A stretch of 64,000 nt of DNA from an uncultured Planctomycetia bacterium (GCA_964650515.1 CAZYUB010000004.1:5541-69540), one strand, 5' to 3'; counted from the first letter of the stretch, positions 693-53,212 are shown. Made by a program: numbers and translations. Notes: a model not told the origin generated them from the sequence alone.

Positions 693-1777
693 AGAATAAG
701 GTAGAAGGCGCCGACGCAGAGAGGGTATCATCCTCGGGGATGGACCTTTCCGAGAAGACGCGCTCAGCGAGCTTCCTCCAGCAGGACTCACAGGTGCAGT
801 TCCGCCGCAGCCTGTTTGAAGGCATCGAGATAATGAGCACGAACGAGGCGCTCGAAAAAGATCCCGAAGCCCGCGAATATTACGGCAAGGCGTTCAAGTC
901 GCTGGGCCGCGAATTCCCGACGGACACCTACGGCGGATATTTCATCCGCGTCAGGAAGGGCAAGACCGTCGAGCTGCCGATACAGGCGTGCCTGCTGCTA
1001 AAGAAACAGGGCTTCAAGCAGAAGGTCCATAATATCGTCATCATAGAAGAAGGCGCGAAAGTATACCTGATAACGGGCTGCTCCGCGTCGAAGGCCGCGG
1101 ATGAGGGCTTCCACCTCGGCATCTCCGAATTCTTCATCAAGAAGGACGCCTACCTGAATTTCACGATGATACACACGTGGAAAGAGGATGTGACCGTAAA
1201 GCCGATGGGAATCGCGCTCGTCGACGAAGGCGCGACATACATCTCGAATTACGTCTGCATGAAACCCGTAAAAGAGATAACGATGTACCCGACGGCCGTC
1301 CTGCAGGGCGAGAGGGCTAGGGCGAGCTTCAATACGCTCGTGCTGTCGCACCCGAACACATTGCAGGACATCGGCTCCCGCATAATCTTCAAGGCCGACA
1401 ACACGCAGGGCGAGATGATAGCGCGTGCGGTCAGCTTGGGCGGAAAGATGATATCGCGCGGCCAGCTGAAAGCCGAAGCCGAGAACGTCAAGGCCCACCT
1501 CGAATGCCGCGGGCTCATAATTTCGCGCGAAGGCACCGTCGAAGCGATACCCGAGCTCGACAGCAATTACCGCGACGTCGACATGTCCCACGAGGCCGCG
1601 ATCGGCAAGATAAGCAAGGAAGAGATAGAATACCTCAGCGCGCGCGGGATGTCCGTCGAAGAGGCGCAGTCGGTCATCATCCGCGGATTCATGGACGTAG
1701 AGATCCTCGGGCTTCCCGATATGCTCAAGAAAGAGATCGAATCCCTCGAGGACCGCTCGCTTAAGGGGAGCATGTAG
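674..1777 (+). CDS. sufD: SufB/SufD-family Fe-S assembly protein (SufD-like, about 370 aa)
   Basis: Directly follows and overlaps sufC; size and composition fit SufBD. A TTG at 659 or the ATG at 674 are both possible starts. The antisense ORF 998..1906 is rejected. Confidence 0.6.
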   Translation: MPADELKNKVEGADAERVSSSGMDLSEKTRSASFLQQDSQVQFRRSLFEGIEIMSTNEALEKDPEAREYYGKAFKSLGREFPTDTYGGYFIRVRKGKTVELPIQACLLLKKQGFKQKVHNIVIIEEGAKVYLITGCSASKAADEGFHLGISEFFIKKDAYLNFTMIHTWKEDVTVKPMGIALVDEGATYISNYVCMKPVKEITMYPTAVLQGERARASFNTLVLSHPNTLQDIGSRIIFKADNTQGEMIARAVSLGGKMISRGQLKAEAENVKAHLECRGLIISREGTVEAIPELDSNYRDVDMSHEAAIGKISKEEIEYLSARGMSVEEAQSVIIRGFMDVEILGLPDMLKKEIESLEDRSLKGSM

Positions 1778-15278: not shown

Positions 15279-16418
15279 GTGACAATAATGATACATAAAG
15301 TAGATACGTTTAAATCCGGGCCTTTTTTCTTCAGCCTCAATTATGACAGAGGAAAGCTACAAGGTCTTTTGGTTGAAGCAAGAATTTTATACGAAACAGT
15401 TGCCGATATACCCATTCTCCCGGATATTGCGGCTAGGCTCGAAGAAGATTTAATCAGGAAATCGATTTTTGGAACCGCCGCGATAGAGGGTAATCCTCTA
15501 ACAGAGGAGGAGGTAAAAAAGACTCTTTCTCAGGAAGAGATAAAAGGAAAGATAGAGAAGGCAGAAAAGCAAATACGTAATTTGAAAGATGCGTATGAAA
15601 TTATCAGGAAAACAACCCCCAGCGGCAAACCGATCACTCTGGAAGAAGCTTTCATAAAAAATTTACATAAAATTATCACGAAAGATTGCGAAAACCCTGA
15701 GAATATCCCAGGTGGTTATCGTAATCGTCCAGTCAAAGTGGGTGATGAGGAGCACGGAGGCGTTTATACTCCGCCTAAAGCATTCGATGATATAAAGAAT
15801 CTAATGGTCAGCTACATCGAATGGATCAATTCGCCTGATGTAATGAAGGAAGATCCCGTAATCCGAGCATGTTTAGCGCATTATCATTTAGCTCTTATTC
15901 ATCCTTTTGATAACGGAAATGGTAGAACTGCTCGAGCTGTTGAAGCGGTCCTGATAAAGAGCGGAGGAGTTAAGTATGTTCCCCATATGCTTTCCAATTA
16001 TTATTACAGGCATATTGACGATTACTTCAGAGCATTTTCATTAGCGGAACGTAATGAAGCCAATGACATTACACCTTTTGTCGAGTTCTTTCTTAAAGGA
16101 TTAGTTAGCTCGCTGGAAGAGATAAAACTAATAATATTTTCCTGGATCAGGGAATATACTCTCAGAGATTATTATATATTTTTAAGAAGAAAGAGAAAGA
16201 TTACACAAAGACAACATGATTTGATCGGTCTTTTATTGGAAACGCGAAGCGGAGAGTTTACCCTAAAAGATTTATTTGAACAAGAGAAATTCAAGATAAT
16301 TTATAGAAAAGTTAGCGAGAGAACCGCTCGTAGAGACCTGAAAAAACTTGAAGGGAATAGGCTGATAACGATTGTTAAAGATGGCGTGTATGCATTAAAT
16401 GCTAAAGTATTAGGATGA
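15279..16418 (+). CDS. Fic-family protein (adenylyltransferase/Doc-like)
   Basis: Canonical Fic motif HPFDNGNGRTAR; alternative ATG at 15288. Confidence 0.85.
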   Translation: MTIMIHKVDTFKSGPFFFSLNYDRGKLQGLLVEARILYETVADIPILPDIAARLEEDLIRKSIFGTAAIEGNPLTEEEVKKTLSQEEIKGKIEKAEKQIRNLKDAYEIIRKTTPSGKPITLEEAFIKNLHKIITKDCENPENIPGGYRNRPVKVGDEEHGGVYTPPKAFDDIKNLMVSYIEWINSPDVMKEDPVIRACLAHYHLALIHPFDNGNGRTARAVEAVLIKSGGVKYVPHMLSNYYYRHIDDYFRAFSLAERNEANDITPFVEFFLKGLVSSLEEIKLIIFSWIREYTLRDYYIFLRRKRKITQRQHDLIGLLLETRSGEFTLKDLFEQEKFKIIYRKVSERTARRDLKKLEGNRLITIVKDGVYALNAKVLG

Positions 16419-16427
16419 TGTAACGTT

Positions 16428-17147
16428 TTGAAAAAAGAGAATCGTTCTACAGGTATTAAGAGCTGGCCGGAGGACGACAGGCCGCGCGAAAAGCTACTCA
16501 AGAAGGGGGCGGGGGTTTTGAGCAATTCTGAGCTTCTGGCAATTCTTCTTCGAACCGGCACAAACGGGACCAGTGCAATAGACCTTGCCCGCGATATCCT
16601 CAAGAAATTCGGCTCATTTCGCAATATGGCGTATACAGATGCTCGAGACTGGAAGGAATTCAAGGGTTTGGGGGGTGCCAAGATTGCCCATATTCAGGCC
16701 GCGCTTGAGATCGGGCGACGTTATCGTGAAAATGATGTATCCACAGGGAAACAGAAGATTGTCTCCGCCAAGGATATTGTAGATATAGTCATGCCCCAAC
16801 TTCGCGACCTCAAAACCGAAGTATTTAAAGTTGTCTATCTCGATAGCAACAATCGTATAATAGATATATCCGATACAGCCGCCGGAACAGTCGACAAAGC
16901 ATTTCCAATTGTCCGTGAAATTATCCATGCCGCTTTGCAAAAATTCGCCAAGTCGATTGTTTGCGTTCACAACCACCCCAGTGGCAATACTGTTCCAAGC
17001 GCTCAAGACAAGAAATTCACCGAAGATTTAACCGCCGCCGCGGATTTGTTAGGCATTAAGGTTCTCGACCATATCATCATAGGCGGTACCGATTATTATA
17101 GTTTTTCAGAAGAGGGGAGGCAGAATGCCCAGAAGCAAACAGTCTAA
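16428..17147 (+). CDS. radC: RadC-like JAB/MPN-domain protein (TTG start)
   Basis: ERPREKLL helix-hairpin region at the N-terminus and JAMM motif HNHPSGNTVPS. Confidence 0.8.
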   Translation: MKKENRSTGIKSWPEDDRPREKLLKKGAGVLSNSELLAILLRTGTNGTSAIDLARDILKKFGSFRNMAYTDARDWKEFKGLGGAKIAHIQAALEIGRRYRENDVSTGKQKIVSAKDIVDIVMPQLRDLKTEVFKVVYLDSNNRIIDISDTAAGTVDKAFPIVREIIHAALQKFAKSIVCVHNHPSGNTVPSAQDKKFTEDLTAAADLLGIKVLDHIIIGGTDYYSFSEEGRQNAQKQTV

Positions 17148-18738
17148 CGCTAAACCCAAGAAACAGGAATCCTTCACAGACGCCCTCTGGAAATCCGCGG
17201 ACAAACTGCGCAAGAATATGGACGCCGCGGAATATAAGCATGTGGTGATGGGGCTTATCTTCCTGAAATATATCTCTGACGCTTTCGAAGTCCTGCATTC
17301 AAAGCTCGTCCGGGGCAAGGGCGAATACGAAGGCGCGAACTCCGAAGATCCCAACGAGTATACCGCCGAAAAAGTATTTTTCGTGCCTCCGATAGCGCGC
17401 TGGAAGCATATCTCAGACAACGCTAAAAAGACCGAAATTTTGCTCGATAACGGTAAGAAAGTCGACATCGGCGGTTATATCGACGAAGCCATGGAAGCAA
17501 TCGAGCGACAGAATACCTCACTCAGAGGCGTTTTGCCTAAAGTGTATGCCCGGCAGAACTTGGACCGCACCAGTCTCGGCGGTTTGATAGATCTTATAGG
17601 CACCATAGCCTTGGGAACCGAAGAAGCCAAGAGCAAAGACATCCTCGGTCAGGTATATGAATATTTCCTCGGCCAATTCGCCCTCGCCGAAGGCAAGAAG
17701 GGCGGGCAGTTCTACACTCCGCGCAGCGTTGTAAAACTGTTGGTCGAGATGCTCCAGCCATTCGAAGGCCGGGTATTCGATCCCTGCTGCGGTTCGGGCG
17801 GCATGTTCGTGCAGAGCGAGAAGTTCATTGAAGCCCATCAGGACCACTACAAGAAGAAACCCAAAGGTGTCAGCCTCAATCCGAGCGACATGATCTCCAT
17901 CTACGGTCAGGAATCCAACCAGACCACCTGGCGCCTGGCCAAGATGAATCTGGCTATCCGCGGCATCGACAGCTCCAACGTCAAATGGAACAACGAAGGC
18001 TCTTTCCTCAACGATGCGCACAAGGACCTGAAGGCCGATTTTATCATCGCCAATCCGCCGTTCAACGATTCCGACTGGTCCGGCGATCTCTTGAAAGATG
18101 ACGCCCGCTGGAAATACGGTATTCCGCCCAGCGGTAACGCCAATTATGCCTGGATCCAGCATTTCATCTATCATATCTCGCCGTCAGGCGGAATGGCCGG
18201 GTTTGTCCTGGCCAAAGGTTCTCTGACTTCCAAGACCAACAACGAAGGCGAAATCCGCAAAACCATCATCGAGGCCGGGTTGCTCGATTGTATAGTCAAT
18301 CTTCCGGCAAAGCTTTTCCTGAATACCCAAATTCCCGCTTGTCTTTGGTTCTTATCGCGTAAAAAAGAGGGTAGGCTGGATAAAGTATTGTTCGTCGATG
18401 CCCGCAATATGGGTTATTTGATCAACCGCCGCACCCGCGATTTTACGGATGAAGATATCGCCAAGATTGCAGATACCTACCATCATTGGCGCAACAAAAA
18501 CGATAAATATGAAGACGTCCCCGGCTTCTGCAAATCCGTCACTCTCGACGAAATCAGGCAGAAAGATTATGTGCTCACGCCGGGCCGCTACATCGGCTTG
18601 CCGGAAGAAGAGGATGATTTCGACTTTGCCGAACGTTTCTCCAAGCTTAAAACTGAGCTGGAAGAGCAGATGAAAGAAGAGGCGCACCTGAATGAGCTTA
18701 TTCGTCAGAATCTTGCGAAATTGGAGATAAAGAAGTGA
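17125..18738 (+). CDS. hsdM: Type I restriction-modification system methyltransferase subunit HsdM
   Basis: N-terminal LWKSADKLRKNMDAAEYKHVVMGLIFLKYISD, SAM motif DPCCGSGGM, catalytic IIANPPF. Confidence 0.9.
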   Translation: MPRSKQSNAKPKKQESFTDALWKSADKLRKNMDAAEYKHVVMGLIFLKYISDAFEVLHSKLVRGKGEYEGANSEDPNEYTAEKVFFVPPIARWKHISDNAKKTEILLDNGKKVDIGGYIDEAMEAIERQNTSLRGVLPKVYARQNLDRTSLGGLIDLIGTIALGTEEAKSKDILGQVYEYFLGQFALAEGKKGGQFYTPRSVVKLLVEMLQPFEGRVFDPCCGSGGMFVQSEKFIEAHQDHYKKKPKGVSLNPSDMISIYGQESNQTTWRLAKMNLAIRGIDSSNVKWNNEGSFLNDAHKDLKADFIIANPPFNDSDWSGDLLKDDARWKYGIPPSGNANYAWIQHFIYHISPSGGMAGFVLAKGSLTSKTNNEGEIRKTIIEAGLLDCIVNLPAKLFLNTQIPACLWFLSRKKEGRLDKVLFVDARNMGYLINRRTRDFTDEDIAKIADTYHHWRNKNDKYEDVPGFCKSVTLDEIRQKDYVLTPGRYIGLPEEEDDFDFAERFSKLKTELEEQMKEEAHLNELIRQNLAKLEIKK

Positions 18739-19805
18739 GTGAGTGGAAGGAATGTAAATTAGGTGATTTCGTCCAGATTAATTACGGAAAAGGCTTGCCC
18801 GAACATAAAAGAACTTTTGGTAATGTACCAGTATATAGTTCTGCAGGTGTAACAGGTTGGCATGATACGCCACTAGTAAAGTCTGAAGGAATTATTATTG
18901 GCAGAAAAGGTACGATCGGTACTGTCTATTATGCTAGCGAACCGTTTTTTTGTATTGATACGGCATATTATATTGAACCAAATAAGTCGAAGTACGATCT
19001 TAAATTTCTTTTTTATTTGTTGCAGACACTTAGATTAAATGAGTTAAACGAAGATAGTGCCGTGCCTGGCCTAAATAGGAATACGGCATATGATCAAGAT
19101 ATAATTCTTCCATCTTTGCCAGAACAGCGTGCCATTGCCGTAATCCTTTCCAGTCTTGACGACAAAATCGACCTTTTACATCGCCAGAACCAAACCCTCG
19201 AATCCATAGCTGAGACAGTTTGGCTGAAGGCACTCGAAGAAGATGTAAATCCGTCCACAGTAAATCTTGGAGATATAATTGACTTATATGACAGTAAGCG
19301 TATTCCTCTTTCAAGTATGCACAGAAATAAAATGAAAAAAGGCGCTCTGTATCCTTATTATGGGGCTGCTAAAATAATGGATTATGTAAATCAATATATT
19401 TTTGAAGGCGAATATTTATTATTAGGTGAAGATGGAACGGTTCAAACTGAAGAAGGTTTTCCCATTCTACAGTTAGCAACTGGAAAATTTTGGGTAAATA
19501 ATCATACGCATGTTATAAAAGCTAAAAATCCGTTTAGCAATTTTTTGTTATATATTATCTTAAGAAAAATGACTATCTCTCAAATTATAACGGGTGCAGT
19601 GCAGCCAAAAATCAATCAAGAAAACTTAAAATCTCTAAGAATAGAAATTCCTGGTAAAAGGCGCATCAATGAAATTGCGATATTGATGGATGAGATATGG
19701 CAAAAAATTCAAAATAACAAATCTCAAGTTATTATAGTTGAAAAAATAAGAGATGCATTGCTGCCAAGATTGATGTCAGGAGAAATGATAGTTGATTTAA
19801 ATTGA
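18735..19805 (+). CDS. hsdS: Type I RM specificity subunit HsdS (two target-recognition domains)
   Basis: Start overlaps the hsdM stop; central conserved LPSLPEQRAIAVILSSLDDKIDL; AT-rich as is typical for hsdS. Confidence 0.8.
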   Translation: MSEWKECKLGDFVQINYGKGLPEHKRTFGNVPVYSSAGVTGWHDTPLVKSEGIIIGRKGTIGTVYYASEPFFCIDTAYYIEPNKSKYDLKFLFYLLQTLRLNELNEDSAVPGLNRNTAYDQDIILPSLPEQRAIAVILSSLDDKIDLLHRQNQTLESIAETVWLKALEEDVNPSTVNLGDIIDLYDSKRIPLSSMHRNKMKKGALYPYYGAAKIMDYVNQYIFEGEYLLLGEDGTVQTEEGFPILQLATGKFWVNNHTHVIKAKNPFSNFLLYIILRKMTISQIITGAVQPKINQENLKSLRIEIPGKRRINEIAILMDEIWQKIQNNKSQVIIVEKIRDALLPRLMSGEMIVDLN

Positions 19806-19823
19806 TCTAACAGGAGGCAATAA

Positions 19824-21293
19824 ATGGAAGAAAAATCTTGGGCTTCGGATGATGTAATAACATTAGATATTTTGCTAGATTATCAGAATTCTCGAATAGA
19901 TGCTAATGAGAAATCCTCACAAGAAGAAATTAGAAAACTTTTACTAAAAACAGAGGATGTTGTTGAGCTTGCCAATAGTATTATTAGTACCAAAGGACTT
20001 TTACACGGAGAAAGAGTAATTATTGTTAACGAAAATAGTAAATCTATAGTATTGGAAGGCAATCGGAGAACTTGTGCGTGCCAATTATTATTAAACCCAG
20101 GGCTAATCCCTCAGGAGTTTAAGACAATATTTCCTATTTGTAATGATGAGTTAATAAAAAAAGAACTAGAATACTTGAAGGCTGACGTTGCCCCCAATAG
20201 ATTAGCAGCAGAAACTACTATAACCAAGAGACATACTGAACCTGGAGTATCACAATGGACTCCTCTTGCAAAACAAAGAAGGATTACGCGTCTTGTTGAA
20301 GCAGGTCGTTCTATTGAGGAATTAATGTCTGAGTTTGGAATGACTAGGCCGAATATTATAAAAACATTAAAAGAATACCATATTTTCCAATATGCAAAAA
20401 ATCTTCCTATCTGGGGGAAGACCGAACAGGACATATTTAATGATCCGACCCTTTCGATTAATCCCTTCACACGTTTTTTTGAGTTAAAAGGGGTCAAGAA
20501 AATATTAGCATTAAAACACAAGGAAACAGGTGAATTAGAAATCGGAATTGGCGAAGAACAATTTAACAAGATAATAGCTTTTATTGCTCGTGAATTTTTG
20601 ATTCCCGACAAAAATATTGGTAAGCCTAGCGCAAATACTCGAACGACTCCAGGGGAGTTGTTCGAAAAGATTTGTTCGCAGGATAAAGATATTAATGCAG
20701 TCTTGAAAGATAAATTAGAAGGGCATGATTTAGAAAGCAATAAAGAAAATCATACTGAAACCGAGAAAACGAAGCAAAACGCAGCTATTGTAACTACAGA
20801 TTCAACGACTCAACTGACTCCAGCACAACCTTCAGCAAAACCTGGGAAGTTCTTTGAGAATCTCAGCTGTTCCTTAAAAGATAATCAATTATTGTTAGTA
20901 GTAAGTGAAATATCCGATATAAATTACAAAAAATATCGTTTGGCGGCTACTTTTCTTGTAAGGGCTCTAGTTGAAAGAACTCTAAATTACTGCATTGATA
21001 AATATAAACTAAGAAAGCAACTACTAAAAGAGTTCCATACAGCGCATAAGGGATGTAAAGGTCTAGAGCCGGGTCTTGATTTCGTGATTAAATTTTGTAT
21101 AAATAACCACGATAAAATGTTTAATGTTAATAAAGTAAGTGATATGCTAAAAAAATGGAAAGGTGACAAGGATTTATTAGATATTATTATTCATGGCCGT
21201 TGGGCTAATCCCAGTGTTACAAACCTAGAACATTTTGCATCTATCATTCGGCCTACAATCGAAAAAATTCTTACTGGAAACGCCTTAAAATGA
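19824..21293 (+). CDS. ParB/Srx-like nuclease-domain protein (489 aa) nested in the type I RM operon
   Basis: N-terminus DILLDYQNSRIDANE...ELANSIISTKGLLHGERVIIVNEN..SIVLEGNRRTCACQLL matches the ParB N-terminal (ParBc) pattern including the GxRR box. The C-terminal 300 aa are unassigned. Very AT-rich. Confidence 0.5.
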   Translation: MEEKSWASDDVITLDILLDYQNSRIDANEKSSQEEIRKLLLKTEDVVELANSIISTKGLLHGERVIIVNENSKSIVLEGNRRTCACQLLLNPGLIPQEFKTIFPICNDELIKKELEYLKADVAPNRLAAETTITKRHTEPGVSQWTPLAKQRRITRLVEAGRSIEELMSEFGMTRPNIIKTLKEYHIFQYAKNLPIWGKTEQDIFNDPTLSINPFTRFFELKGVKKILALKHKETGELEIGIGEEQFNKIIAFIAREFLIPDKNIGKPSANTRTTPGELFEKICSQDKDINAVLKDKLEGHDLESNKENHTETEKTKQNAAIVTTDSTTQLTPAQPSAKPGKFFENLSCSLKDNQLLLVVSEISDINYKKYRLAATFLVRALVERTLNYCIDKYKLRKQLLKEFHTAHKGCKGLEPGLDFVIKFCINNHDKMFNVNKVSDMLKKWKGDKDLLDIIIHGRWANPSVTNLEHFASIIRPTIEKILTGNALK

Positions 21294-22222
21294 AAATGGG
21301 GCAAGAGGGCGGTCATCTAAATAATAAATTAATAACAAGAAATCTGAGCCCACTAAGGTATCCAGGATCAAAGCGTAAATTATCTCTTTATATTCGAGAA
21401 ATACTTCACCATAATAAACTTAATCCAGATCTTTTGATAGAGCCATTTGTTGGAGGCGGTAGCATTTCCCTATTCTTTATTGTCAATAACTTAGTAAAAA
21501 AAGTCCTTATTTCTGATAAGGACAAATTAATTTCTAGTTTTTGGAAAGTGATATTTTCCAATCCGGAACATATCATTCGCTTTGTTCAACGAGTAGAAAT
21601 AAGTGTTAAGAATTTCGATAAATATAAAAATATTGCCAAAGATGCAGGAAATTATAATGACATTGAATTAGCGAAAACATGTATTTTTCTTAATAGAACT
21701 AGTTTTTCCGGTGTCTTAGCTAATTCTGCTGGCCCAATCGGAGGGAGGAGACAGAAATCAGACTACAAAATCGATTGTCGTTTTAATAGAAAAGATATCG
21801 TAAAAAGAATTGTTTACATTTCCTCTTTAAAAGACAAAGTCATTGTTCGTGATGGTGAGTGGAAGGAGGTAATTAAGTATGCAGATGAATGGAAAAGAAA
21901 TAATAAAGAATATAATAAATCTTTTATATATTTAGACCCCCCTTTTTATTTTAAAGCTGAGAGTTTATACAGAACATATTTTAATTGTAAGCAACACGAA
22001 GAATTGGCCAAAGAATTAGAAAAATTAAATTGTCCATGGATTCTTAGTTATGATAATGTTCCACAGGTTAGAGAATTATATGAAAAGTCCAAAAATATTG
22101 TGCATATTGATATGCCATATTCAATCAATTCACATGCAAAGAGAATAGAAAAAGAACTGATAATTACCGGTTTGGCTTTACCTGGAGTAGATGAAATTAA
22201 TTTTGACCATAAAAATGAATAA
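21290..22222 (+). CDS. Dam-family (D12 class) N6-adenine DNA methyltransferase
   Basis: N-terminal RYPGSKRKL (compare Dam KWAGGKRxL), motif I EPFVGGGSISLFF, catalytic YLDPPFY (DPPY-type). Overlaps the upstream stop and the hsdR start. Confidence 0.7.
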   Translation: MKMGQEGGHLNNKLITRNLSPLRYPGSKRKLSLYIREILHHNKLNPDLLIEPFVGGGSISLFFIVNNLVKKVLISDKDKLISSFWKVIFSNPEHIIRFVQRVEISVKNFDKYKNIAKDAGNYNDIELAKTCIFLNRTSFSGVLANSAGPIGGRRQKSDYKIDCRFNRKDIVKRIVYISSLKDKVIVRDGEWKEVIKYADEWKRNNKEYNKSFIYLDPPFYFKAESLYRTYFNCKQHEELAKELEKLNCPWILSYDNVPQVRELYEKSKNIVHIDMPYSINSHAKRIEKELIITGLALPGVDEINFDHKNE

Positions 22223-25200
22223 CTTCACCGAATCCGAAATCGAAAATTATTCTCTCGATGAGCTAAAAAGGCTTGGGTTCTCGTATATTCCGGGCCCTGC
22301 AGTAGCTCCAGATGAAGCAGGGGCAGAGATGGTTGCGGAACCCGCAGTGCCTTATGGTTTATTTGAAAAGCGCGAGAGCTATGAAGATGTCATATTGAAG
22401 CATGCTTTAGAACAAGCCATCGAGCGGTTAAACCCCGCTATCTCCGAATCCGCACGCAAGGAAGCATTTAAAATGGTTCTTTCCGTATTTTCTCCTCAGC
22501 TAATCACTGCAAACGAAACTTTCCATACCATGCTTTCCGAAGGTGTGCCGGTTACTACGCACAAAGATGGGCAGGAGCGGGGGGAGAGGATATGGCTGAT
22601 CGATTTCCAGAATCCGGAAAACAACGTATTTTGCGCAATTAATCAGTTTACTGTCCAAGAGAATAATCAGCATAAGAGGCCGGATATAATTTTATATGTA
22701 AACGGAATGCCATTAGTGGTAATTGAGCTCAAGAATCCGGCTGATGCCAATGCTACGATTCGCAAGGCGTATGATCAAATCCAGACTTATAAAGTGGTTA
22801 TCCCGTCTTTATTCTTCTATAACGTTATTTGTGTGATTTCCGATGGTCTGGAGGCGAAGGTTGGCACAATAGCTTCTTCGTTTAGCCGGTTCCAGGCATG
22901 GAAGACTATCGATGGCAAGCAAGAGTCCTCAAGCCATGTTAGCCAGCTTGAGGTGCTGATTAAAGGAATGCTGAATAAGGCGACGCTTCTGGATTTGATA
23001 CGGAATTTCATCGTTTTCGAGAAGGACAAGAAGATCGATCCTAAGACCGGTTTGACGCAGATAGAAACAGTCAAGAAGATTGCCGCATATCATCAATATC
23101 ATGCGGTCAACAAGGCGGTTGAGAGCACGCGATGTGCCATATCCGAAAAAGGCAATCGCAAGGCTGGCGTAGTCTGGCATACTCAAGGCTCCGGCAAAAG
23201 CCTTTCTATGGTTTTCTATGCAGGCAAACTCATCCATAATCTCGACAATCCCACCGTTGTAGTTATTACCGACCGAAATGATCTTGATCAACAGCTTTTC
23301 GATACTTTTGCCGCTTCGCAGAGTTTACTCGGCCAGCCGCCGGTACAGGCGGAATCTCGCGACCATCTAAAATCTTTACTCAAGGTGGCATCGGGCGGAA
23401 TCGTATTTACCACAATCCAGAAGTTCTTTCCCGAGAATGAAAGCTCCACTTATGATCTGTTATCGGATCGCCGCAATATAATCGTCATTGCCGATGAGGC
23501 GCATCGGTCGCAATACGGGTTTGGGGCGAAGTTCGACGGCAAGCGGTTGGCCTACGGTTTTGCGAAATATTTGAGGGACGCCCTTCCAAGTGCGACATTT
23601 ATCGGGTTTACCGGTACGCCGGTTGAAAGTACAGATATCAACACTCCCGCAGTGTTCGGTAATTATATCGATATCTACGACGTCGCCCAGGCCATGGAAG
23701 ACGGAGCGACGGTGAAAATATATTATGAGAGTCGCTTGGCAAAGGTAAATCTGACGGCAGACGGTAGAAAACTGATCGAGGAGTTCGAGAAAGAGATGAC
23801 GGACGATGGAGCGACCGCCGTCCAGCAAGCCAAGGCCAAATGGACCAAGCTCGAAGCCATTGTCGGACATCCTCAACGGTTGAAGAATTTGGCAAGGGAT
23901 ATCGTCGAGCATTATAAGAAGCGTGCGGAAGTATTCGATGGCAAAGCCATGATCGTTACCATGAGTCGCAGGATTGCAGTGGCTTTGTACGACGCGATTA
24001 TCGCCTTGCGGCCGGAATGGCATAGCGATGATCTGAAGGAAGGTGCGCTGAAGGTCGTTATGACTTCGTCATCTTCCGATAAGATGGAATTCGATCCCGA
24101 AGATCCGGACAGCCTTGTTATTCCTGCTTGTCATCGCACGAACAAGCAAGACCGCCAGGTGCTTGCAGAAAGGATGAAAGAGCCGCGGGATCCTTTGAAA
24201 CTGGTTATCGTTCGGGATATGTGGTTGACGGGATTCGATGTTCCGTGCTTGCATACACTTTATATCGATAAACTAATGAAGGGCCATACTCTTATGCAGG
24301 CCATTGCGCGTGTGAACCGCGTGTTCATGGACAAGCCGGGTGGGCTTGTCGTCGATTATATCGGTATCGGCAACGCTCTTAAAGAAGCACTTGCATTTTA
24401 TGCGAGTTCGGGAGGAAAAGGCGATCCAGCCCAGACACAAGAAAAAGCAGTGGCTATGCTGGTCGAAAAAATAGAGGTGGTGCGCCAGATATTCCACGGA
24501 TTCGATTATATGCGGTTTTTCAAGGTGGGAACAGCGGAACGCTTGTCGATTATTCTACAAGCAGAGGAATTCATTCTTTCTAAAGAGCAGACGAAAGAAC
24601 GTTTTGTGAAGGAAGCGACTGCGCTTTCCAAGCTGTTCGCCTTGGCTGTACCGAACGAAGAAGCGATGAAACTGACGAATGAAATCGCTTTTTTTCAATC
24701 GGTCCGGGCGCGACTGCTTAAATTCGAAGGTGACGGAGAACGTGGAGAGAAAAGCTACGAAAGCGCTATACGTCAGATCGTGAATCAGGCGGTCGAATCG
24801 ACCGAGGTAGTAGATATTTTCGATGCGGCAGGGATTAAGAAGCCCGATATTTCCTTACTTTCCGAAGAATTTATGCTGGAAGTCAAGGAGATGAAGAATA
24901 AGAATCTAGGCGCTGAACTTCTGAAGAAGATTCTTAATGATGAGATTAAAGTGCGACTGAAATACAATATTACCGAAGGCAAAAAACTGTTGGATCTGCT
25001 GGAAGCATCTATAAGAAAATATCAGAACAATTTATTGACTACGGCAGAGATAATCGAAGAATTGATAAATATTGCCCGTCAAATTCGCGAAGTTGACGGG
25101 TTATCGGAGAAATTGAAGTTATCCAACGAGGAATTCGCTTTTTATACGGCGTTGGAGGTGAACGATAGCGCTGTAAAGGTATTAGGTGATGAAACACTCA

Positions 25201-25415
25201 AAGTCATCGCACGAGAAATAGCCGATAAGGTGCGCAAAAACGCTAGTATCGACTGGGCCCTGAAAGAAAGCGCTCGCGCGCGTCTCATGGTCATCGTCCG
25301 CCGCACACTGAATAAATATGGTTATCCGCCTGACAAGCAGCAGAAAGCGATCGATACCGTTATGAAGCAGGCCGAAGTGTTGGCGGATTATTGGGTCAAG
25401 AATGAGGAGAAATAA
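22214..25415 (+). CDS. hsdR: Type I restriction enzyme R subunit HsdR
   Basis: Nuclease region VIELKNPAD, helicase motif I TQGSGKSLSM, motif II IADEAHRSQ, motif VI QAIARVNR; about 1070 aa. Confidence 0.9.
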
Positions 25416-25432
25416 AAGTAGAAGGAGGTACC

Positions 25433-25699
25433 ATGGGGATTGAAAAAGAGTTTAGTTTTGGCAGTTGTGAATTTTCACGTTTAAGCCCGGATAAAATAAT
25501 TCCAAGTACAAAAAAGTTAAATATTATAGTTGGCTTTGGGGAAGCTTTAAAGCTAAATCTTGCTATTGAAGAATGCCTGAGGAAATTAAATAGATATAAA
25601 AGAAGCACGAGAGAAGGAAAGAGAGCCGCCATAAACCTCACCATACATTTTGATGTAGAAAGAATTTCTGTTTCCGAAGAAAAGACCAGAGAGATTTAA
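25433..25699 (+). CDS. Hypothetical small protein (88 aa)
   Basis: AT-rich ORF with an RBS (GGAGG) 8 nt upstream; no family recognised. Confidence 0.35.
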   Translation: MGIEKEFSFGSCEFSRLSPDKIIPSTKKLNIIVGFGEALKLNLAIEECLRKLNRYKRSTREGKRAAINLTIHFDVERISVSEEKTREI

Positions 25700-25709
25700 A
25701 AACAAAAAT

Positions 25710-26210
25710 GTGAGGTACAACATGCTTATTAAAAACGAGATAACTGTAGGAGATTTAATTGCAATGGCTGGCTTTATCGCAGCTGCGATAGGTTTGTTTC
25801 TGACGTTTTATCAAATACTTAAAAGCAATAAGCATAAACGAGCAGAATTTATCATGGATTTTTGTAAACAATTTATGGATTCAAACGATTTGCTAAAAAT
25901 GTATTATGATATTGAATACGGGAGCTTTCATGCGCCTGTTTTTGGTTCTCATTCTTCCGAAGAAGTTCAGCTAGACAAGTTGTTAATGCTTTTTGAAAAT
26001 GTATCCACGCTGTATGAAATGGGTAATATTTGTCTTAAGGATTTAAGCGTTATTTCGTATTACTTTATCAGAGTTTATGAAAACGAAGGTGTAAAACAAT
26101 ATTTATTTGCATTAGATGATTGGTGTAAAAAAAGCGGATTGCCTAAAAGGTACTGTTCTTTTAGAAATGTTTATATTGTTTTGAGTAAAAATCCACAAAA
26201 ATTATTATAG
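25710..26210 (+). CDS. Hypothetical protein with an N-terminal TM helix (166 aa)
   Basis: ITVGDLIAMAGFIAAAIGLFLTFYQIL TM segment followed by a soluble domain; it sits in the defence island immediately after hsdR. Confidence 0.4.
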   Translation: MRYNMLIKNEITVGDLIAMAGFIAAAIGLFLTFYQILKSNKHKRAEFIMDFCKQFMDSNDLLKMYYDIEYGSFHAPVFGSHSSEEVQLDKLLMLFENVSTLYEMGNICLKDLSVISYYFIRVYENEGVKQYLFALDDWCKKSGLPKRYCSFRNVYIVLSKNPQKLL

Positions 26211-46786: not shown

Positions 46787-46813
46787 TTGACAATACTCTA
46801 CCAAAATGGTAGA
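46787..46813 (+). promoter_or_regulatory. Candidate promoter plus palindromic operator upstream of the Rrf2 regulator
   Basis: TTGACA (46787-46792) followed by the palindrome CTACCAAAATGGTAG (46798-46812). Confidence 0.45.
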
Positions 46814-46841
46814 AATAGTAGAAATTGAATGGAGACCGGAA

Positions 46842-48221
46842 ATGAAGATGTCGACGAGGGGAAGGTATGGGGTGCGGCTGATGCTCGAGCTCGCGGCGCA
46901 TTACGGGAAAGGGGCCGAGACGCTTAAACAGATATCGAAGAGCCAGTGCATATCGGAGAAGTACCTATGGCACCTGGTGCCGCCGCTTAAGGCTGCGGGG
47001 CTCTTGGCTTCGGGAAGAGGCGCGCACGGCGGGTATTCGCTCGCGAAGTCACCCTCGAAAATAACGCTTAAGGATATCGTGACGGCTGCGGAAGGCCCGC
47101 TGTTCCCGACAATGTGCGCGGGGAACCCCTCGTCATGTAAAAGGTCGTCCTTGTGCGCGTCAAGGGACATTTGGGAAGAGATTGGCAGGAAGGTCGGGCA
47201 GATACTGTCCTCGGTGACGCTCGAAGAGCTGATGCAGAGGCAGAATAACAAGGCGAAAAAACCACCGGTATGTATTACATATAGGAGGAGGAAGATGGGC
47301 AGGATATTCGAAGATATAATTGAGGCGATAGGCAACACTCCGTTGGTTAAGATAAACTGCCTTGCCAGGGGCATGAACGCCGAGATACTGGCCAAGATGG
47401 AGTCGTTCAACCCGCTTTCGAGCGTCAAAGACAGGATAGGCGCAGCGATGATAGAGGCGGCCGAAGAGAAGGGGCTTATCGACGAGGGGAGCGTCATCAT
47501 CGAGCCGACGAGCGGAAATACCGGTGTCGCTCTCGCGTTCGTGTGCGCCTCGAAGGGCTACCGCCTGATATTAACGATGCCGGAGACGATGAGCGTCGAG
47601 AGGAGGCAGCTGCTGGGGATACTCGGCGCGGAGATAGTGCTGACAGAGGGAGCCAAAGGCATGAAGGGCGCCATCGATAAGGCGAAGGATCTCGCGAAGC
47701 AGACGCCGAATAGTTATATACCGGACCAGTTCTCGAACCCCGCTAATCCGGAGATACACAGGAAGACGACCGCGGAAGAGATATGGATGGACACCGGCGG
47801 CAAGGTCGATATCTTTATCGCGGGCGTCGGCACCGGCGGGACGCTGACCGGCGTCGGGGAAGTCCTTAAAAAAAGGAACCCGAAAGTTAAGGTCATAGCC
47901 GTTGAGCCGAAGGACAGCCCCGTGCTCTCGGGAGGCAATCCGGGCCCTCACAAGATACAGGGGATAGGCGCGGGTTTTGTGCCGAAGGTCTTGAATACGG
48001 GCGTGATCGATGAGATAATACAGGTCGCTTCAGAGGATGCCGGCGAGATATCGCGCCGCCTCGCGAAGGAAGAAGGCATTCTCGCGGGCATATCGTGCGG
48101 CGCGGCCATGTGGGCGGCGCTCGAGGTCGCGAAACGGCCCGAATCCAACGGTAAGACGATAGTCGTCATCCTTCCCGATACCGGGGAACGCTATCTATCC
48201 ACGTGGTTATTCCAGGAGTGA
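46842..48221 (+). CDS. Rrf2-family (IscR/CymR-like) regulator in one continuous frame with cysteine synthase CysK
   Basis: Rrf2 [19 protein letters not shown].. plus a Cys cluster ([14 protein letters not shown]); then, with no stop codon, the RBS-like AGGAGGAGG followed by ATG GGC... starting a complete CysK ([27 protein letters not shown]). Confidence 0.6.
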
Positions 48222-48225
48222 GGAT

Positions 48226-49416
48226 ATGAAACGCAAAGTATATCTTGACCATAACGCGACCACTCCGCTGCACCCGGAAGTGAAGAGCGCGATGGTTGAG
48301 GCGATGGAGGTGTTCGGCAACCCTTCGAGCATGCACAGCTTCGGCAGGCAGGCCAAGCGGCTGGTCGACGACGCGAGGGAAAAGATATCGTCGTTCATCG
48401 GCAGCGGGCCGGAGGATATCGTCTTCGTCGGGAGCGGCTCCGAGGCGAACAATACCGTGCTTAACCTTCTCTACTGCACGGCAAAGCGCTGTGAAGCCCC
48501 GCATACAAAAAGGCGCCAGGTCGTCACCTCGCAGATAGAGCACCCGTGCATCCTTGAGGCCGCCGGATGCCTCGAAGAAAGGGGCATCGAGGTCATATAT
48601 CTGCCGGTCGACAAATACGGCAAGATAGATATGGAGAAATACGAAGAGCTCGTGTCGGAGAAGACGGCGCTTGTCTCGGTAATGATGGCGAATAACGAGA
48701 TAGGCACGATACAGGACATAAAAAAGATAGGAAGCATCGCGCACAAGCACGGGGCGCTATTCCACACGGACGCGATCCAGGCGGTCGGCAAGGTCCCCGT
48801 TGACGTCAGGGCTCTCGGCGTCGATTACCTTTCGCTCTCGGCGCATAAGATCTACGGGCCGAAAGGCGTCGGGGCGCTTTACGTCTCGCCAGGCGCGCCG
48901 TTCTGCCCGTTCATACGCGGCGGCCACCAGGAGAGGGGCCGGCGCGCGGGCACCGAAAATACCGCGGGCATCGCGGGCTTCGGCAAGGCCATCGAGATGC
49001 GCGCGAAAGAGATGGATGGCGAGAGCAATAGATTGCTCTCGCTCAAATCGCGCCTGAAGGCGGGCATAGAAAAAAATATAAAGGATATCGAATTTAACGG
49101 CCATCCGGTCGACTCGCTGCCGGGCACGCTAAACGTATCGTTCGACGCGTCGGAGGGCGAGGCCATATTGTTGTATCTCGACCTCGAGGGCATCGCCGTA
49201 TCGACCGGCTCGGCGTGCGCGTCGGGCTCGCTCGACCCGTCGCACGTGCTGATAGCTACGGGAGTCCCCGCCGAACAGGCGCACGGATCGATAAGGATAA
49301 GCATGGGCAGGGACAATACCGAGGAAGATATCGATTATACCGTAGGGAAGCTCGCGTTTGTCATCGACAAGATCAGGAAGATGTCTACCGTCGGAAAGGG
49401 GCCTCATGGAAAATAA
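48226..49416 (+). CDS. iscS: Cysteine desulfurase (IscS/NifS)
   Basis: VYLDHNATTP, SAHKIYGPKGVGALY (PLP lysine), catalytic loop SSGSAC-type. Confidence 0.9.
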   Translation: MKRKVYLDHNATTPLHPEVKSAMVEAMEVFGNPSSMHSFGRQAKRLVDDAREKISSFIGSGPEDIVFVGSGSEANNTVLNLLYCTAKRCEAPHTKRRQVVTSQIEHPCILEAAGCLEERGIEVIYLPVDKYGKIDMEKYEELVSEKTALVSVMMANNEIGTIQDIKKIGSIAHKHGALFHTDAIQAVGKVPVDVRALGVDYLSLSAHKIYGPKGVGALYVSPGAPFCPFIRGGHQERGRRAGTENTAGIAGFGKAIEMRAKEMDGESNRLLSLKSRLKAGIEKNIKDIEFNGHPVDSLPGTLNVSFDASEGEAILLYLDLEGIAVSTGSACASGSLDPSHVLIATGVPAEQAHGSIRISMGRDNTEEDIDYTVGKLAFVIDKIRKMSTVGKGPHGK

Positions 49417-50017
49417 GCCCGGATGGGTCTATTCCGAAAAGGTAAAAGACCATTTCATCAACCCGCGCAATGTGCTCGGCGACGAGGCGGAATATGATGC
49501 GGACGGCAAAGGCACTGTAGGCAATATAAAATGCGGCGACGAGATGATAGTCGCGATCAAGGTGGACAAGGCAAGCGGCACCATAGCCGACTGCAGGTGG
49601 AAGACCTACGGGTGCGCGAGCGCTATCGCCAGCACGTCGATATTATCCGAGGTGGTCAAGGGCAAGACGCTCGACTTCGCCTACCATATCACGGCGAAAG
49701 ATATCGCGAAGGAGCTCGGCGGCCTTCCGGAGCACAAGGTCCATTGTTCGGTCCTCGGCCACAAGGCCCTGCGCGCGGCGATAGACGATTATTACAAACG
49801 CAACGGCATGACCGACAAGGTGGAGGAAGAGAAGTCGCACCTTATCTGCCAGTGCATGAATGTGACCGACATCGAGATAGAGCATGCCGTGCTTGAGGGC
49901 GCGCGCACCTATCTCGAATTGCAGGAGAGGACGAAACTCGGTACCGTATGCGGACAGTGCAAGGAGAAGGCGTCCGCGCTCATGGAAGAATATAAGAAGA
50001 GGCATTTTTCGGGATAA
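49407..50017 (+). CDS. nifU: NifU-like Fe-S scaffold with a C-terminal BFD-like [2Fe-2S] domain
   Basis: YSEKVKDHFINPRN...CGDEM...GCASAIAS, then CQCMNVTDIEIE...CGQCK. Confidence 0.8.
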
Positions 50018-50018
50018 T

Positions 50019-50516
50019 ATGAGAAAGATCGCTATAGTCGGCTCGCCCAACGTCGGAAAATCCGTGATCTTCAATAACCTCACGGGAAGCTACGCGGACG
50101 TCTCGAACTACCCCGGCACCACCGTCGAGGTCTCGAGGGGCAGGTGCAGGATAGGCGCGGAAGATTTCGAGGTCATAGATACGCCGGGAATGTATTCTCT
50201 GCTGCCGATATCGGAAGAGGAGAAGGTGGGCCGCTCGATACTTATGGAGGAGTGCCCGTGCCTTATCCTTCATGTCATAGACGCGAAGAACATCGAGAGG
50301 ATGCTCTCGATGACGCTGCAGCTGCTCGAGGCCGGGCTGCCGCTCGTCCTTGTGCTCAATGTCTTCGATGAAGCCGAGGCGCTCGGGATAGACATAGATA
50401 CCGCGTATCTGGAAAAGGAGCTTAAGATACCCGCGGTCAAGACAGTAGGGACCAAAGGCGCCGGAATGGACATACTCAGGGGAAAGATAGAGGAGCATGT
50501 TAAGAGATTTTGTTAA
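50019..50516 (+). CDS. feoB: FeoB G-domain (stand-alone small GTPase)
   Basis: G1 GSPNVGKS, G2 YPGTT, G3 DTPG, G4 absent or atypical. Confidence 0.8.
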   Translation: MRKIAIVGSPNVGKSVIFNNLTGSYADVSNYPGTTVEVSRGRCRIGAEDFEVIDTPGMYSLLPISEEEKVGRSILMEECPCLILHVIDAKNIERMLSMTLQLLEAGLPLVLVLNVFDEAEALGIDIDTAYLEKELKIPAVKTVGTKGAGMDILRGKIEEHVKRFC

Positions 50517-51957
50517 GAATATAGGATACGACGACCCGCTCGAGGCGTCCCTCTCGAGGATCGAGGGGCTCCTGCTGTCGGATTACAGGATATCGAAGCG
50601 CTCCGTCGCTTTGCTGGTATTGCAGGAGGATCCCGACGTATCGGAAGCGGTCAGGAAGAGGGAATCAGAGGATAACGCGAAAGAGATCCTCGCGATCGCC
50701 TCGGAACTGAAGACGCATTATTCATACCCTCTTACATATATAATAACCGAACGCAGGCAGAGGGAAGCGAGCCGGATCTCTTCCGCGGCTACGACGGTGA
50801 AGAAGAAGGGTTCGCTCGGCATCAGGGAGGCGGTGAGCAGGGCGATGATGAACCCGTTCATCGGCGGGCCGATACTGCTTGCGGTAATGTACTACGGCCT
50901 TTATAAGTTCGTAGGCAATTTCGGCGCGGGCGTTGTCGTGGATTTCCTTGAGGACAAGGTATTCGGGAACTACGTGAATCCCTTCGTTGTCGGTATCGTC
51001 GATAAATACGTGCCATGGGCGATGATCAGGGACCTTATCGCGGGCGATTACGGTGTCGTAACCCTCGGTATCAGGTACGCGTTCGCGATAGTGCTGCCTA
51101 TAGTCGCAACTTTCTTCCTCGCGTTCGCGGTGATCGAGGACAGTGGGTACCTTCCGCGTCTCGCTATGCTCATAGACCAGATATTCAAGAAGATAGGCCT
51201 CTCGGGAAGGGCGGTCATTCCGCTCGTGCTGGGGCTCGGATGCAGCACGATGGCGACTATGGTGACCCGTACGCTCCCTACAAAGCGGGAGCGGATCATA
51301 GCGACGCTGCTGCTGGCCCTGGCGATACCATGCTCGGCGCAGATGGGCGTCATACTCGCCCTGCTCGAATCGAGGCCGTTGGGCCTTATCGTATGGCTTT
51401 CGGTCATTGTGGGCGTCTTCCTTGTCGTCGGGTACCTCGCCTCTAAAATAATGCCGGGAGAGCTTCCGAGTTTTTACATGGAGATACCGCCGTTGAGGTT
51501 TCCGCAGGTATCGAACGTCCTGCGCAAGACTGCCAGCAGGATGAAATGGTATTTCCTTGAGGTCCTTCCGCTCTTCATGCTCGCGAGCGTGATGATATGG
51601 ATAGGGCAGATAACCGGCATATTCGGTTTCCTCGTCAGTATACTGGAGCACCCGGTCAGGTGGATAGGATTGCCTTCGGAAGCGGCGGTAGCGTTCCTGT
51701 TCGGTTTCTTCCGCCGCGATTACGGCGCCGCCGGCCTTTACGACCTGAAGATGGAAGGGCTTTTAAACGGCAACCAGCTGGTAGTGGCGTGCGTGACGTT
51801 GACGCTCTTCCTGCCGTGTATTGCGCAGTTGCTGATGAACATAAAGGAACGCGGTATGAAGGTCGGCATAGCGATGTCGGCGTTCATCCTGTTCTTCTCG
51901 TTCAGTGTCGGCTGGATCGTCAGTATTTTGTTGAGCATATCCGGATTGAGCCTATAA
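50497..51957 (+). CDS. feoB: FeoB membrane (GDI-like + permease) portion
   Basis: Helical linker followed by 8 or more TM segments with FeoB gate-motif context; overlaps the G-domain ORF by 20 nt. Confidence 0.75.
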   Translation: MLRDFVKNIGYDDPLEASLSRIEGLLLSDYRISKRSVALLVLQEDPDVSEAVRKRESEDNAKEILAIASELKTHYSYPLTYIITERRQREASRISSAATTVKKKGSLGIREAVSRAMMNPFIGGPILLAVMYYGLYKFVGNFGAGVVVDFLEDKVFGNYVNPFVVGIVDKYVPWAMIRDLIAGDYGVVTLGIRYAFAIVLPIVATFFLAFAVIEDSGYLPRLAMLIDQIFKKIGLSGRAVIPLVLGLGCSTMATMVTRTLPTKRERIIATLLLALAIPCSAQMGVILALLESRPLGLIVWLSVIVGVFLVVGYLASKIMPGELPSFYMEIPPLRFPQVSNVLRKTASRMKWYFLEVLPLFMLASVMIWIGQITGIFGFLVSILEHPVRWIGLPSEAAVAFLFGFFRRDYGAAGLYDLKMEGLLNGNQLVVACVTLTLFLPCIAQLLMNIKERGMKVGIAMSAFILFFSFSVGWIVSILLSISGLSL

Positions 51958-51974
51958 TATAGAGGGAGCATCAT

Positions 51975-52232
51975 ATGGTAAAGCAGGAAAAAGAAGATAA
52001 GAAGCCCGTCGTGCCGTTGTCGGACCTGCAGCCCGGCGGGAAGGGCCAGATCGCCTACCTCCAGGCGAAGGGAAAGGGCCAGATGCAGAAATTGTTAAGC
52101 ATCGGCGTGATCCCCGGGATGCATGTAGTCCTCGTGCAGAGGTTCCCGTCTTATGTGTTCAAACTGGGCCATACGCAGTTCGCGATAGACAAGGAACTCG
52201 CGCGCAGCGTATACGTCAAAATAACGAAATGA
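51975..52232 (+). CDS. feoA: FeoA
   Basis: SH3-like fold; LSDLQPGGKGQIAYL. Confidence 0.8.
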   Translation: MVKQEKEDKKPVVPLSDLQPGGKGQIAYLQAKGKGQMQKLLSIGVIPGMHVVLVQRFPSYVFKLGHTQFAIDKELARSVYVKITK

Positions 52233-52239
52233 GGCGAAG

Positions 52240-52752
52240 ATGGATAACAAAGTGACATTCAAAGGGAGCCCGTTGACGCTTTCGGGCGGCGGCATCGAAA
52301 AAGGCGGCCCCGCGCCCGGGTTCAAGGCGCTGAAGCAGGACCTCTCCGAGACGGGGCTCGCGGATTTCAGGGGCAAGGTGAAGATACTGACGTCATTCCC
52401 GTCGCTCGATACGCCGGTTTGCGACCTGCAGGTAAAGGAGTTCAACAAGAGGTCCGCGGGCTTCTCTTCGGACGTCGCGGTCATAGGCATAAGCATGGAC
52501 CTGCCGTTCGCGCAGAAGAGGTTCTGCCAGGAGAACGATATAAATAATGTCACAGTCGTATCCGACCACAGGGACGCATCCTTCGGCCTGAACTATGGCC
52601 TGCTCATAAAAGAGCTGCGCCTGCTTGCCAGGTCTATCATCATAGTCGACAAAGAGGACATTGTGAGGTATATTCAGGTGGTGGGCGAACTGACGAACCC
52701 GCCTGATTACGAGGCGGCGCTCAAGGCGCTGCAGGACATATTGAGAGGATAG
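52240..52752 (+). CDS. tpx: Thiol peroxidase Tpx
   Basis: SFPSLDTPVCDLQ (peroxidatic Cys) and a resolving Cys in RFCQEN. Confidence 0.85.
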   Translation: MDNKVTFKGSPLTLSGGGIEKGGPAPGFKALKQDLSETGLADFRGKVKILTSFPSLDTPVCDLQVKEFNKRSAGFSSDVAVIGISMDLPFAQKRFCQENDINNVTVVSDHRDASFGLNYGLLIKELRLLARSIIIVDKEDIVRYIQVVGELTNPPDYEAALKALQDILRG

Positions 52753-52753
52753 C

Positions 52754-53212
52754 ATGGGAAAGATACCCGACGATATAGCGAAATTCCTTCACGCGCAACA
52801 TTTCACGGTCGTCTCGACGATAGGAAAGGACGGCCTGCCGCATAATTCCTGCAAGGGGATCGTCAACATAGAAGACGATACCGTTTACCTGCTCGACCTT
52901 TACAAGGGGCAGACGCATGAAAACCTCGAGAAGAACCCCGCGATCAGCGTAAGCGTCGTGGATGAGCACCGCTTCAAGGGGTACTGCCTCAAAGGCACCG
53001 CGAAGCTGTTGACCGAGGGCCTGCTGAAATCCCATATAATCAAGTCATGGGAAGATAAGATAACGGCAAGGATAACGCATCGGCTCATCAAGAACCTGAA
53101 GGGCGAGCACGGGCATGAAAGCCATCCCGAAGCCCAGCTTCCGAAGCCGAAATACCTGATAGCGATGAAGGTCTCAGAGATAGTCGACCTTACGCCCCCT
53201 CCGCTCAGATGA
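52754..53212 (+). CDS. Pyridoxamine 5'-phosphate oxidase-like FMN-binding protein
   Basis: Split-barrel PNPOx-like pattern. Confidence 0.6.
   Translation: MGKIPDDIAKFLHAQHFTVVSTIGKDGLPHNSCKGIVNIEDDTVYLLDLYKGQTHENLEKNPAISVSVVDEHRFKGYCLKGTAKLLTEGLLKSHIIKSWEDKITARITHRLIKNLKGEHGHESHPEAQLPKPKYLIAMKVSEIVDLTPPPLR

Follow-up and report, generated by a model that had tools for sequence, protein, structure and literature searches.

An Rrf2–CysK reading frame very probably created by a one-base deficit between two adjacent genes

Organization of the locus

The window analyzed here, a stretch of 64,000 nucleotides, contains one open frame on the plus strand (46842-48221) in which an Rrf2 domain is followed by a complete CysK with no stop codon between them. 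The ORF listing extends this frame to 46806..48221 (+), 471 aa, spanning both domains; the probable true start is the ATG at 46842, which has GGAG 7 nt upstream and would give a 459-residue product. Pfam places both domains on the same polypeptide, Rrf2 at aa 15-144 (PF02082, 116 bits) and PALP at aa 173-458 (259 bits), and NCBIfam models agree, so the uninterrupted frame is present as the sequence-only reading had described it. At the junction, the residues YRRRK are encoded by AGGAGGAGGAAG (TAT AGG AGG AGG AAG), which abuts the ATG at 47295, again as described, and the protein continues MGRIF... In the +1 frame, a TAG lies at 47282-47284, exactly 10 nt ahead of the cysK ATG. The features of the locus are as follows.

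46787..46815 (+): candidate sigma-70 promoter of rrf2-cysK-nifS-nifU, read from the sequence
46798..46812 (no strand assigned): inverted repeat CTACCA-AAA-TGGTAG (CTACCAAAATGGTAG), candidate Rrf2 operator, from sequence and conservation
46842..47284 (+): rrf2 regulator gene (CymR/IscR-like) in its native frame, from PF02082, TIGR00738, and relatives
47256..47261 (+): A6 homopolymer, one base short so that the two frames merge, from alignment with relatives
47270..47284 (+): ATG TAT TAC ATA TAG, the M-Y-Y-I-stop tail in the native frame, identical in all close relatives
47283..47294 (+): intact cysK Shine-Dalgarno AGGAGGAGG and spacer, arranged as in relatives
47295..48221 (+): cysK (O-acetylserine sulfhydrylase A, 308 aa), beginning at an ATG of its own (TIGR01139)
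48226..49416 (+): nifS/iscS-type cysteine desulfurase (PF00266, 278 bits)
49406..50017 (+): nifU-type Fe-S scaffold, 203 aa from the ATG at 49406 (PF01592, 143.7 bits; PF04324, 50 bits)

The regulator belongs to the Rrf2 family (PF02082, 116.1 bits, cutoff 30; TIGR00738, 115.7 bits, cutoff 73.3) and scores below the cutoffs of both the CymR equivalog (NF047409, 115.5 bits, cutoff 195) and the IscR equivalog (TIGR02010, 104.8 bits, cutoff 207.55). It carries three clustered cysteines, C-x6-C-x5-C, which is the IscR-type pattern at the sequence level; C92 and C105 are invariant and C99 is nearly so in an alignment of 11 homologues. The CysK part was rightly called full length: it matches TIGR01139 with 473.6 bits (cutoff 350.95) over profile positions 3-298 of 298, has its own ATG and ribosome-binding site (RBS), and is 95% identical to 308-aa CysK proteins. 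The iscS and nifU genes reported downstream are likewise there by Pfam and NCBIfam. The desulfurase scores 496.6 bits against TIGR03402, under the cutoff of 530.75, and holds the same position in all relatives, while the scaffold combines NifU_N with a BFD-like [2Fe-2S] (Fer2_BFD) domain and has a 203-aa counterpart at the same position in the related locus L012.

Relatives carry two genes

The closest CysK proteins, from a search of 5.8 billion clusters, are 93-95% identical and come from Candidatus Omnitrophota metagenome-assembled genomes. Gene order around the locus matches that of relatives: GH94, a 287-aa protein, DUF1318, a 73-aa protein, HAD, Rrf2, CysK, NifS, and NifU. In all 12 close-relative loci, drawn from independent JGI, NCBI, ENA, and Logan assemblies, rrf2 (147 or 159 aa, according to which start is chosen) stops 10 nt before the cysK ATG. 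Orthologous fusions, which the sequence-only reading had suggested looking for in related genomes, were thus not found there; every close relative has two genes, separated by TAG and 10 nt.

Protein collections give the same picture. The 471-aa fused protein (P0396), identical to the window ORF, occurs on one NCBI contig of 140,239 bp in a collection of 15 billion proteins and is the only fused member of its 90% cluster of nine; the other members are 134-159 aa long and end in ...TTGMYYI. The Rrf2–CysK architecture is absent from the 120 best Rrf2 homologues (all 134-159 aa), and the 120 best CysK homologues are all stand-alone proteins of 303-329 aa, the closest being 95% identical and 308 aa long. 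When the fusion was used as a HMMER query against 1.84 billion cluster representatives, the Rrf2 part was unmatched in the top 150 matches. A scan of genome contigs gave 80 CysK loci, and no stop-to-stop ORF matched both domains in the 96 loci fetched. Altogether, there is no in-frame junction shared across the 12 or more relative loci and no recurrence in the protein collections, as an evolved fusion would show.

Several candidate fusions were examined and rejected. Five loci (L015, L019, L033, L040, and L043) matched query residues 1-459, but ORF calls and blastp against all loci placed rrf2 and cysK in separate genes, in reverse order in L040. Twenty longer CysK representatives (389-995 aa) contained Rrf2 in no case by Pfam scan; their N-terminal parts hold PMSR, QueH, HAD, JAB, Methyltransf_4, NIR_SIR, a second PALP, SAT, or nothing.

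Some of these N-terminal CysK fusions among metagenome representatives, with JAB, QueH, HAD, Methyltransf_4, NIR_SIR, and PMSR (P0153, P0170, P0200, P0216, P0236, and P0270), may be real. P0200 is a HAD–CysK protein, and a HAD gene sits just upstream of rrf2 in the window. The variety of CysK partners suggests that read-through fusion with an upstream neighbor is a recurrent artefact or accident. Separately, a sister assembly (L003, 3358-4530; GCA_035453445.1, DAOTDD010000015.1) has its own frame-breaking difference: its nifS is called in two pieces of 92 and 294 aa, while assemblies sharing its CysK have nifS whole, at 397 aa.

A one-base deficit in the A-run joins the two frames

DNA alignment with the relatives (alignment A1) shows that the window junction is their sequence minus one base in the A-run. 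Where the window has six A's, the relatives have seven bases, AAAAAAA in L011 and L012 and AAAGAAG in L001-L010 and L094. Their consensus reads ...AAG(A/G)C(A/G) before this site and C(C/T)AC(C/A)GG(N)ATGTATTACAT(A/T)TAG-GAGG(A/C)G(G/T)AAG-ATG after it. By blastn, L011, L012, and L093 align with the window over 3.2 kb (~89.5% identity) with one gap, which falls in the A-run. Over ~21 kb against L094, the A-run has the only uncompensated indel within coding DNA that is not a multiple of three; the remaining gaps lie between genes, span a multiple of three, or offset each other as pairs where the sequences diverge. A degenerate pattern allowing either six or seven A's had one match among JGI metagenome contigs, L093, a relative with seven.

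In the window, the missing A puts the last eight codons of rrf2 (TTGMYYI-stop) out of frame, and the regulator is 88-90% identical to the relatives' Rrf2 up to NNKAKK and unrelated beyond. Adding one A in silico gives a 147-aa Rrf2 that ends in KKTTGMYYI and stops at the TAG at 47282-47284. The sequence-only reading had offered an indel concealing a +1-frame TAG as an alternative to a covalent fusion acting as a natural single-chain complex. The alignment with relatives, whose A-run is longer by one base and whose rrf2 terminates at that TAG, bears out the indel and not the complex.

Substitutions at the junction also follow the native frame. Between the A-run and the TAG, eight aligned sequences have four variable sites (ACY, ACM, GGN, and ATW), and each of them falls on a third codon position when read natively. 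One is the window's own GGT, a change that would fall at a second position if read in the fused frame. The lineage therefore evolved under the native two-gene frame, and evolution of the linker or junction under the fused frame was not seen at any of these sites. Moreover, the native stop, the tail codons, the RBS, and the cysK start are all intact in the window, which together with the native-frame substitutions argues for a one-base difference without evolutionary depth. The RBS had been described as a relic. In the relatives, the rrf2 stop is followed by the 10-nt spacer GAGG(A/C)G(G/T)AAG, which contains the RBS, and then by ATG; judged by this shared layout, AGGAGGAGG is an intact, live RBS of cysK. 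We are thus highly confident that the joined frame reflects a one-base event between what are ancestrally and functionally two genes, and is not an evolved fusion.

The C-terminal tail of the regulator

The residues displaced by the deficit form a conserved C-terminus. Ile is the last residue in 104 of the 120 best Rrf2 homologues, mostly as aromatic-x-Ile, and all 22 Rrf2 ORFs scored that adjoin a same-strand cysK end in YYI, YQI, YNI, FYI, YVI, or YMI. The C-terminus of the Thermincola potens Rrf2/IscR structure (PDB 4CIC) is MYYI, and Listeria 3LWF could be aligned up to its penultimate residue, with ...MFY. Ile-ending homologues that have a source name come from Omnitrophota, Deltaproteobacteria, Smithellaceae, and Dehalococcoidales.

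In Staphylococcus aureus, crystal structures and SPR data reveal that CymR's C-terminal pentapeptide, YMFYI (...GYMFYI), enters the CysK active site, where four hydrogen bonds are made to its terminal carboxylate; the peptide binds with an affinity of 25 nM and, in the authors' description, competes directly with O-acetylserine binding (bioRxiv 10.1101/2024.09.19.614015). By analogy, the native tail of the window's regulator is probably functional in the same way.

An aromatic-x-Ile end is present in the native frame and in all relatives; the window's polypeptide as it stands lacks one, its tail codons reading ...CITYR. In the fused frame, MYYI is exchanged for out-of-frame residues and the C-terminus of the regulator is tied up in a peptide bond to CysK. 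Because docking needs a free terminal carboxylate and the MYYI is lost, the fusion cannot reproduce the known complex in a single chain. If it is made at all, it would, by comparison with CymR, be a regulator deprived of its docking device. The proposal of a natural single-chain CymR–CysK complex thus fails on three counts: the fusion is private to one assembly, its architecture is found nowhere else, and it deletes the docking tail.

Sequence error or real mutation

As the cause of the A6, we lean toward a homopolymer-length miscall in the consensus, since the missing base lies in a homopolymer, its allele is private to one assembly, and it costs the regulator a strongly conserved functional motif. 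The locus resembles the spurious homopolymer-indel fusions of draft and metagenome-assembled genomes in having a one-base poly-A difference private to one assembly, an intact native stop and downstream RBS, and a linker that is an out-of-frame translation. It differs from them in that the rest of the window is without such events. None of the other 12 homopolymers of at least six bases in the compared 21 kb has an indel, and 25 of 25 neighboring genes agree with the lengths of their orthologues within a few codons. Three other overlapping ORF pairs were considered as possible split genes and set aside as members of distinct families (SufC/SufD, RadC/HsdM, and a Dam-like methyltransferase/HsdR). 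Pervasive homopolymer errors across the assembly are ruled out by these clean homopolymers, gene lengths, and unsplit neighbors. Errors of the long-read kind are therefore not general in this assembly, and that counts in favor of a real mutation.

Such a mutation, a very recent one-base deletion in this population by slipped-strand mispairing in an A7 tract, is an alternative that we rate nearly as likely. It would produce an Rrf2–linker–CysK chimera of ~50 kDa, and free CysK would also be translated from the undamaged internal RBS and ATG. With the docking tail lost, it would be a degenerative or neutral variant with a damaged regulator rather than an adaptation. Homopolymers are hotspots for real frameshift mutations, and the A-run is a site of this kind. 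An assembly with no other homopolymer indels or split genes also looks accurate in its consensus, and the fused ORF stays open through 11 out-of-frame codons. However, the deletion is seen in one contig only and eliminates a motif that 104 of 120 homologues retain, and the untouched native stop, tail codons, and RBS, with substitutions in the native frame, leave it no evolutionary depth. We consider improbable a fuller scenario in which an Omnitrophota population carries the deletion, makes the covalent chimera plus free CysK, and perhaps restores a low level of native regulator by slippage on the A-run. Such a population would be a natural experiment in which an Rrf2 repressor is tethered to its partner enzyme and has lost the usual docking tail.

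Two other contigs match the window elsewhere: L097 (JGI 3300076594, Ga0565073_078611), whose 1,159 bp are 100% identical to 51878-53036, and L098 (Logan, SRR30949868), which is 97.4% identical to 51862-52830. By these matches, the window's strain or a close one is apparently present in both samples. They were the only contigs that a look-up by FeoA gave, and both end 4.6 kb short of the junction. Look-ups by exact product for the fusion (471 and 459 aa), NifS, the 308-aa CysK, and the 73-aa neighbor had no match from the same strain across the junction.

An adaptive single-chain CymR–CysK regulator, in which the covalent link couples DNA binding to O-acetylserine sensing, is very unlikely. Both domains are complete and in frame, the CymR–CysK partnership is real in Firmicutes (bioRxiv 10.1101/2024.09.19.614015), and a fused dimer is sterically conceivable, given that Rrf2 and CysK would both be dimers. 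Against this, none of the collections searched holds an orthologous fusion, the linker is merely the out-of-frame tail plus RBS, the free carboxylate of the terminal Ile and the MYYI sequence are both abolished, and there is no signature of selection in the fused frame.

We give still less credence to recoding at the A-run, by a -1 ribosomal slip on GCG AAA AAA C or by RNA polymerase adding an A, whereby one gene would have two products, the fusion by standard decoding and the exact native 147-aa regulator by slippage. A -1 shift after AAA AAA does read ACC ACC GGT ATG TAT TAC ATA TAG, which is the native tail, and the A-run resembles known A-rich slippery sites such as A AAA AAG of dnaX. However, the 91 nt around the site have no stable structure (MFE -11.1 kcal/mol, z = -0.09), the zero-frame G AAA AAA departs from the canonical X XXY YYZ heptamer, a run of six A's is on the short side for transcriptional slippage to be efficient, and the relatives are in frame, some without a homopolymer (AAAGAAG), so that neither the downstream structure nor the conservation of a programmed -1 frameshift or slippage site was found.

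The fusion itself, a one-base event private to one assembly, is of little consequence, and the locus is best annotated as rrf2 (frameshifted) plus cysK. There is a general warning in it: where an open frame crosses a perfect Shine-Dalgarno into a full-length gene just past a homopolymer, a length error or a young frameshift is indicated and not a fusion of domains.

Promoter, candidate operator, and likeness to known regulators

The candidate promoter upstream of rrf2 consists of TTGACA (46787-46792), a 17-nt spacer, and TAGAAA (46810-46815) preceded by TGG. A consensus promoter scanner made no call at 46787-46815; the -10 lacks the final T. The promoter block, TTCTTGACAA..CTCTAC.A.AATG.TAGA.ATAGT.GAAAT, is nearly invariant in L094, L011, and L012, and the DNA upstream of it is unalignable in the same three loci. 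The inverted repeat overlaps the spacer and the -10, with 0-2 arm mismatches in relatives. A palindromic operator had been proposed here; what stands is a conserved 6-bp inverted repeat around AAA, and what does not is a perfect 15-mer palindrome. The position of the repeat and the conserved block fit autorepression by an Rrf2 dimer, as far as sequence can indicate. The genomic context drawn by the sequence-only reading, a CymR/IscR-like Rrf2 gene followed by cysK, nifS, and nifU with a conserved promoter-proximal inverted repeat, is otherwise upheld.

The native regulator resembles both CymR and IscR. Its end, ...GMYYI, is like the ...GYMFYI of S. aureus CymR, structures of CymR are among its best PDB sequence matches (2Y75, 92 bits; 3T8R, 79 bits), and its gene adjoins cysK. 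In contrast to the CymR–CysK systems of Bacillus subtilis and S. aureus, it scores under the NCBIfam CymR cutoff (115.5 vs 195), and its C-x6-C-x5-C is missing from B. subtilis CymR (2Y75) in the alignment. CymR systems are found in Firmicutes, whereas this locus is in a Candidatus Omnitrophota lineage and its operon runs on into nifS-nifU; as written in the window, moreover, the tail is frameshifted away. Its best match of solved structure is T. potens IscR (4CIC, 104.7 bits, full length), which has cysteines in the same region and an identical MYYI C-terminus, and like iscR-type genes it precedes genes for a cysteine desulfurase and a scaffold. It differs from IscR in its score (104.8 vs the cutoff of 207.55) and in having cysK interposed before nifS. 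The native regulator thus joins an IscR-like three-Cys motif to a CymR-like ...MYYI tail, directly upstream of cysK-nifS-nifU.

On our preferred reading, two ordinary adjacent genes, an Rrf2 regulator and cysK, would be written as one ORF because the A-run has six bases in place of seven. The operon rrf2-cysK-nifS-nifU would be transcribed from the conserved TTGACA/TAGAAA promoter, with an Rrf2 dimer possibly bound to the inverted repeat over the -10 region. The C-x6-C-x5-C motif may bind an Fe-S cluster, as that of IscR does, and by homology the free ...MYYI end may dock in the CysK active site as in CymR, where O-acetylserine could compete with it. In the simplest model, the repressor would sense Fe-S status through its cluster and cysteine/O-acetylserine status through CysK docking, and this integrated sensing would control the flow of sulfur into Fe-S assembly. 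Free CysK should still be made in the window from the intact internal RBS and ATG.

Since an Ile-terminated tail is common to 104 of 120 homologues from several phyla, the sequences suggest that CysK docking by Rrf2 regulators is widespread, beyond the Bacillus and Staphylococcus studied so far. It may link cysteine supply to Fe-S cluster assembly, and it may be a little-noticed property of IscR-like Rrf2 regulators outside Firmicutes.

Other features of the window

Downstream of nifU (50016-52752), the window is a mosaic in gene content when set beside L011/L093 and L094. A feoB-feoB-feoA cassette (~50019-52232) is shared with L094 and absent from L011/L093, while a peroxiredoxin/Redoxin gene (52240-52752) is shared with L011/L093 and absent from L094. 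The extra BFD domain of NifU is found in the window and in L011/L012; the NifU of L094 is a 143-aa NifU_N only.

FeoB is encoded as two plus-strand ORFs, 50019-50516 and 50497-51957, which lie in different frames and share 20 nt. The first encodes a 165-aa G-domain (FeoB_N) and the second a 486-aa cytosolic-helical and membrane portion (FeoB_Cyto, Gate, and FeoB_C). The relatives L094-L096 divide the gene identically, with equal lengths and overlap (88.5% identical, no gaps), and thus it is a conserved split or translationally coupled arrangement and not an error.

A stretch at ~15279-26210 (+) has a third-position GC of 0.23-0.5, compared with ~0.75 elsewhere. It holds RadC, HsdM (17125-18738), HsdR (22191-25415), and a Dam-like D12 methyltransferase (21290-22222), with HsdM and HsdR forming a type I restriction-modification system, and is probably a horizontally acquired defence island. 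Finally, genes for a SufC-like ABC ATPase and a SufB/D core lie at the start of the window (135-1777, +), indicating that the genome has a SUF system besides the NifS/NifU-type operon.
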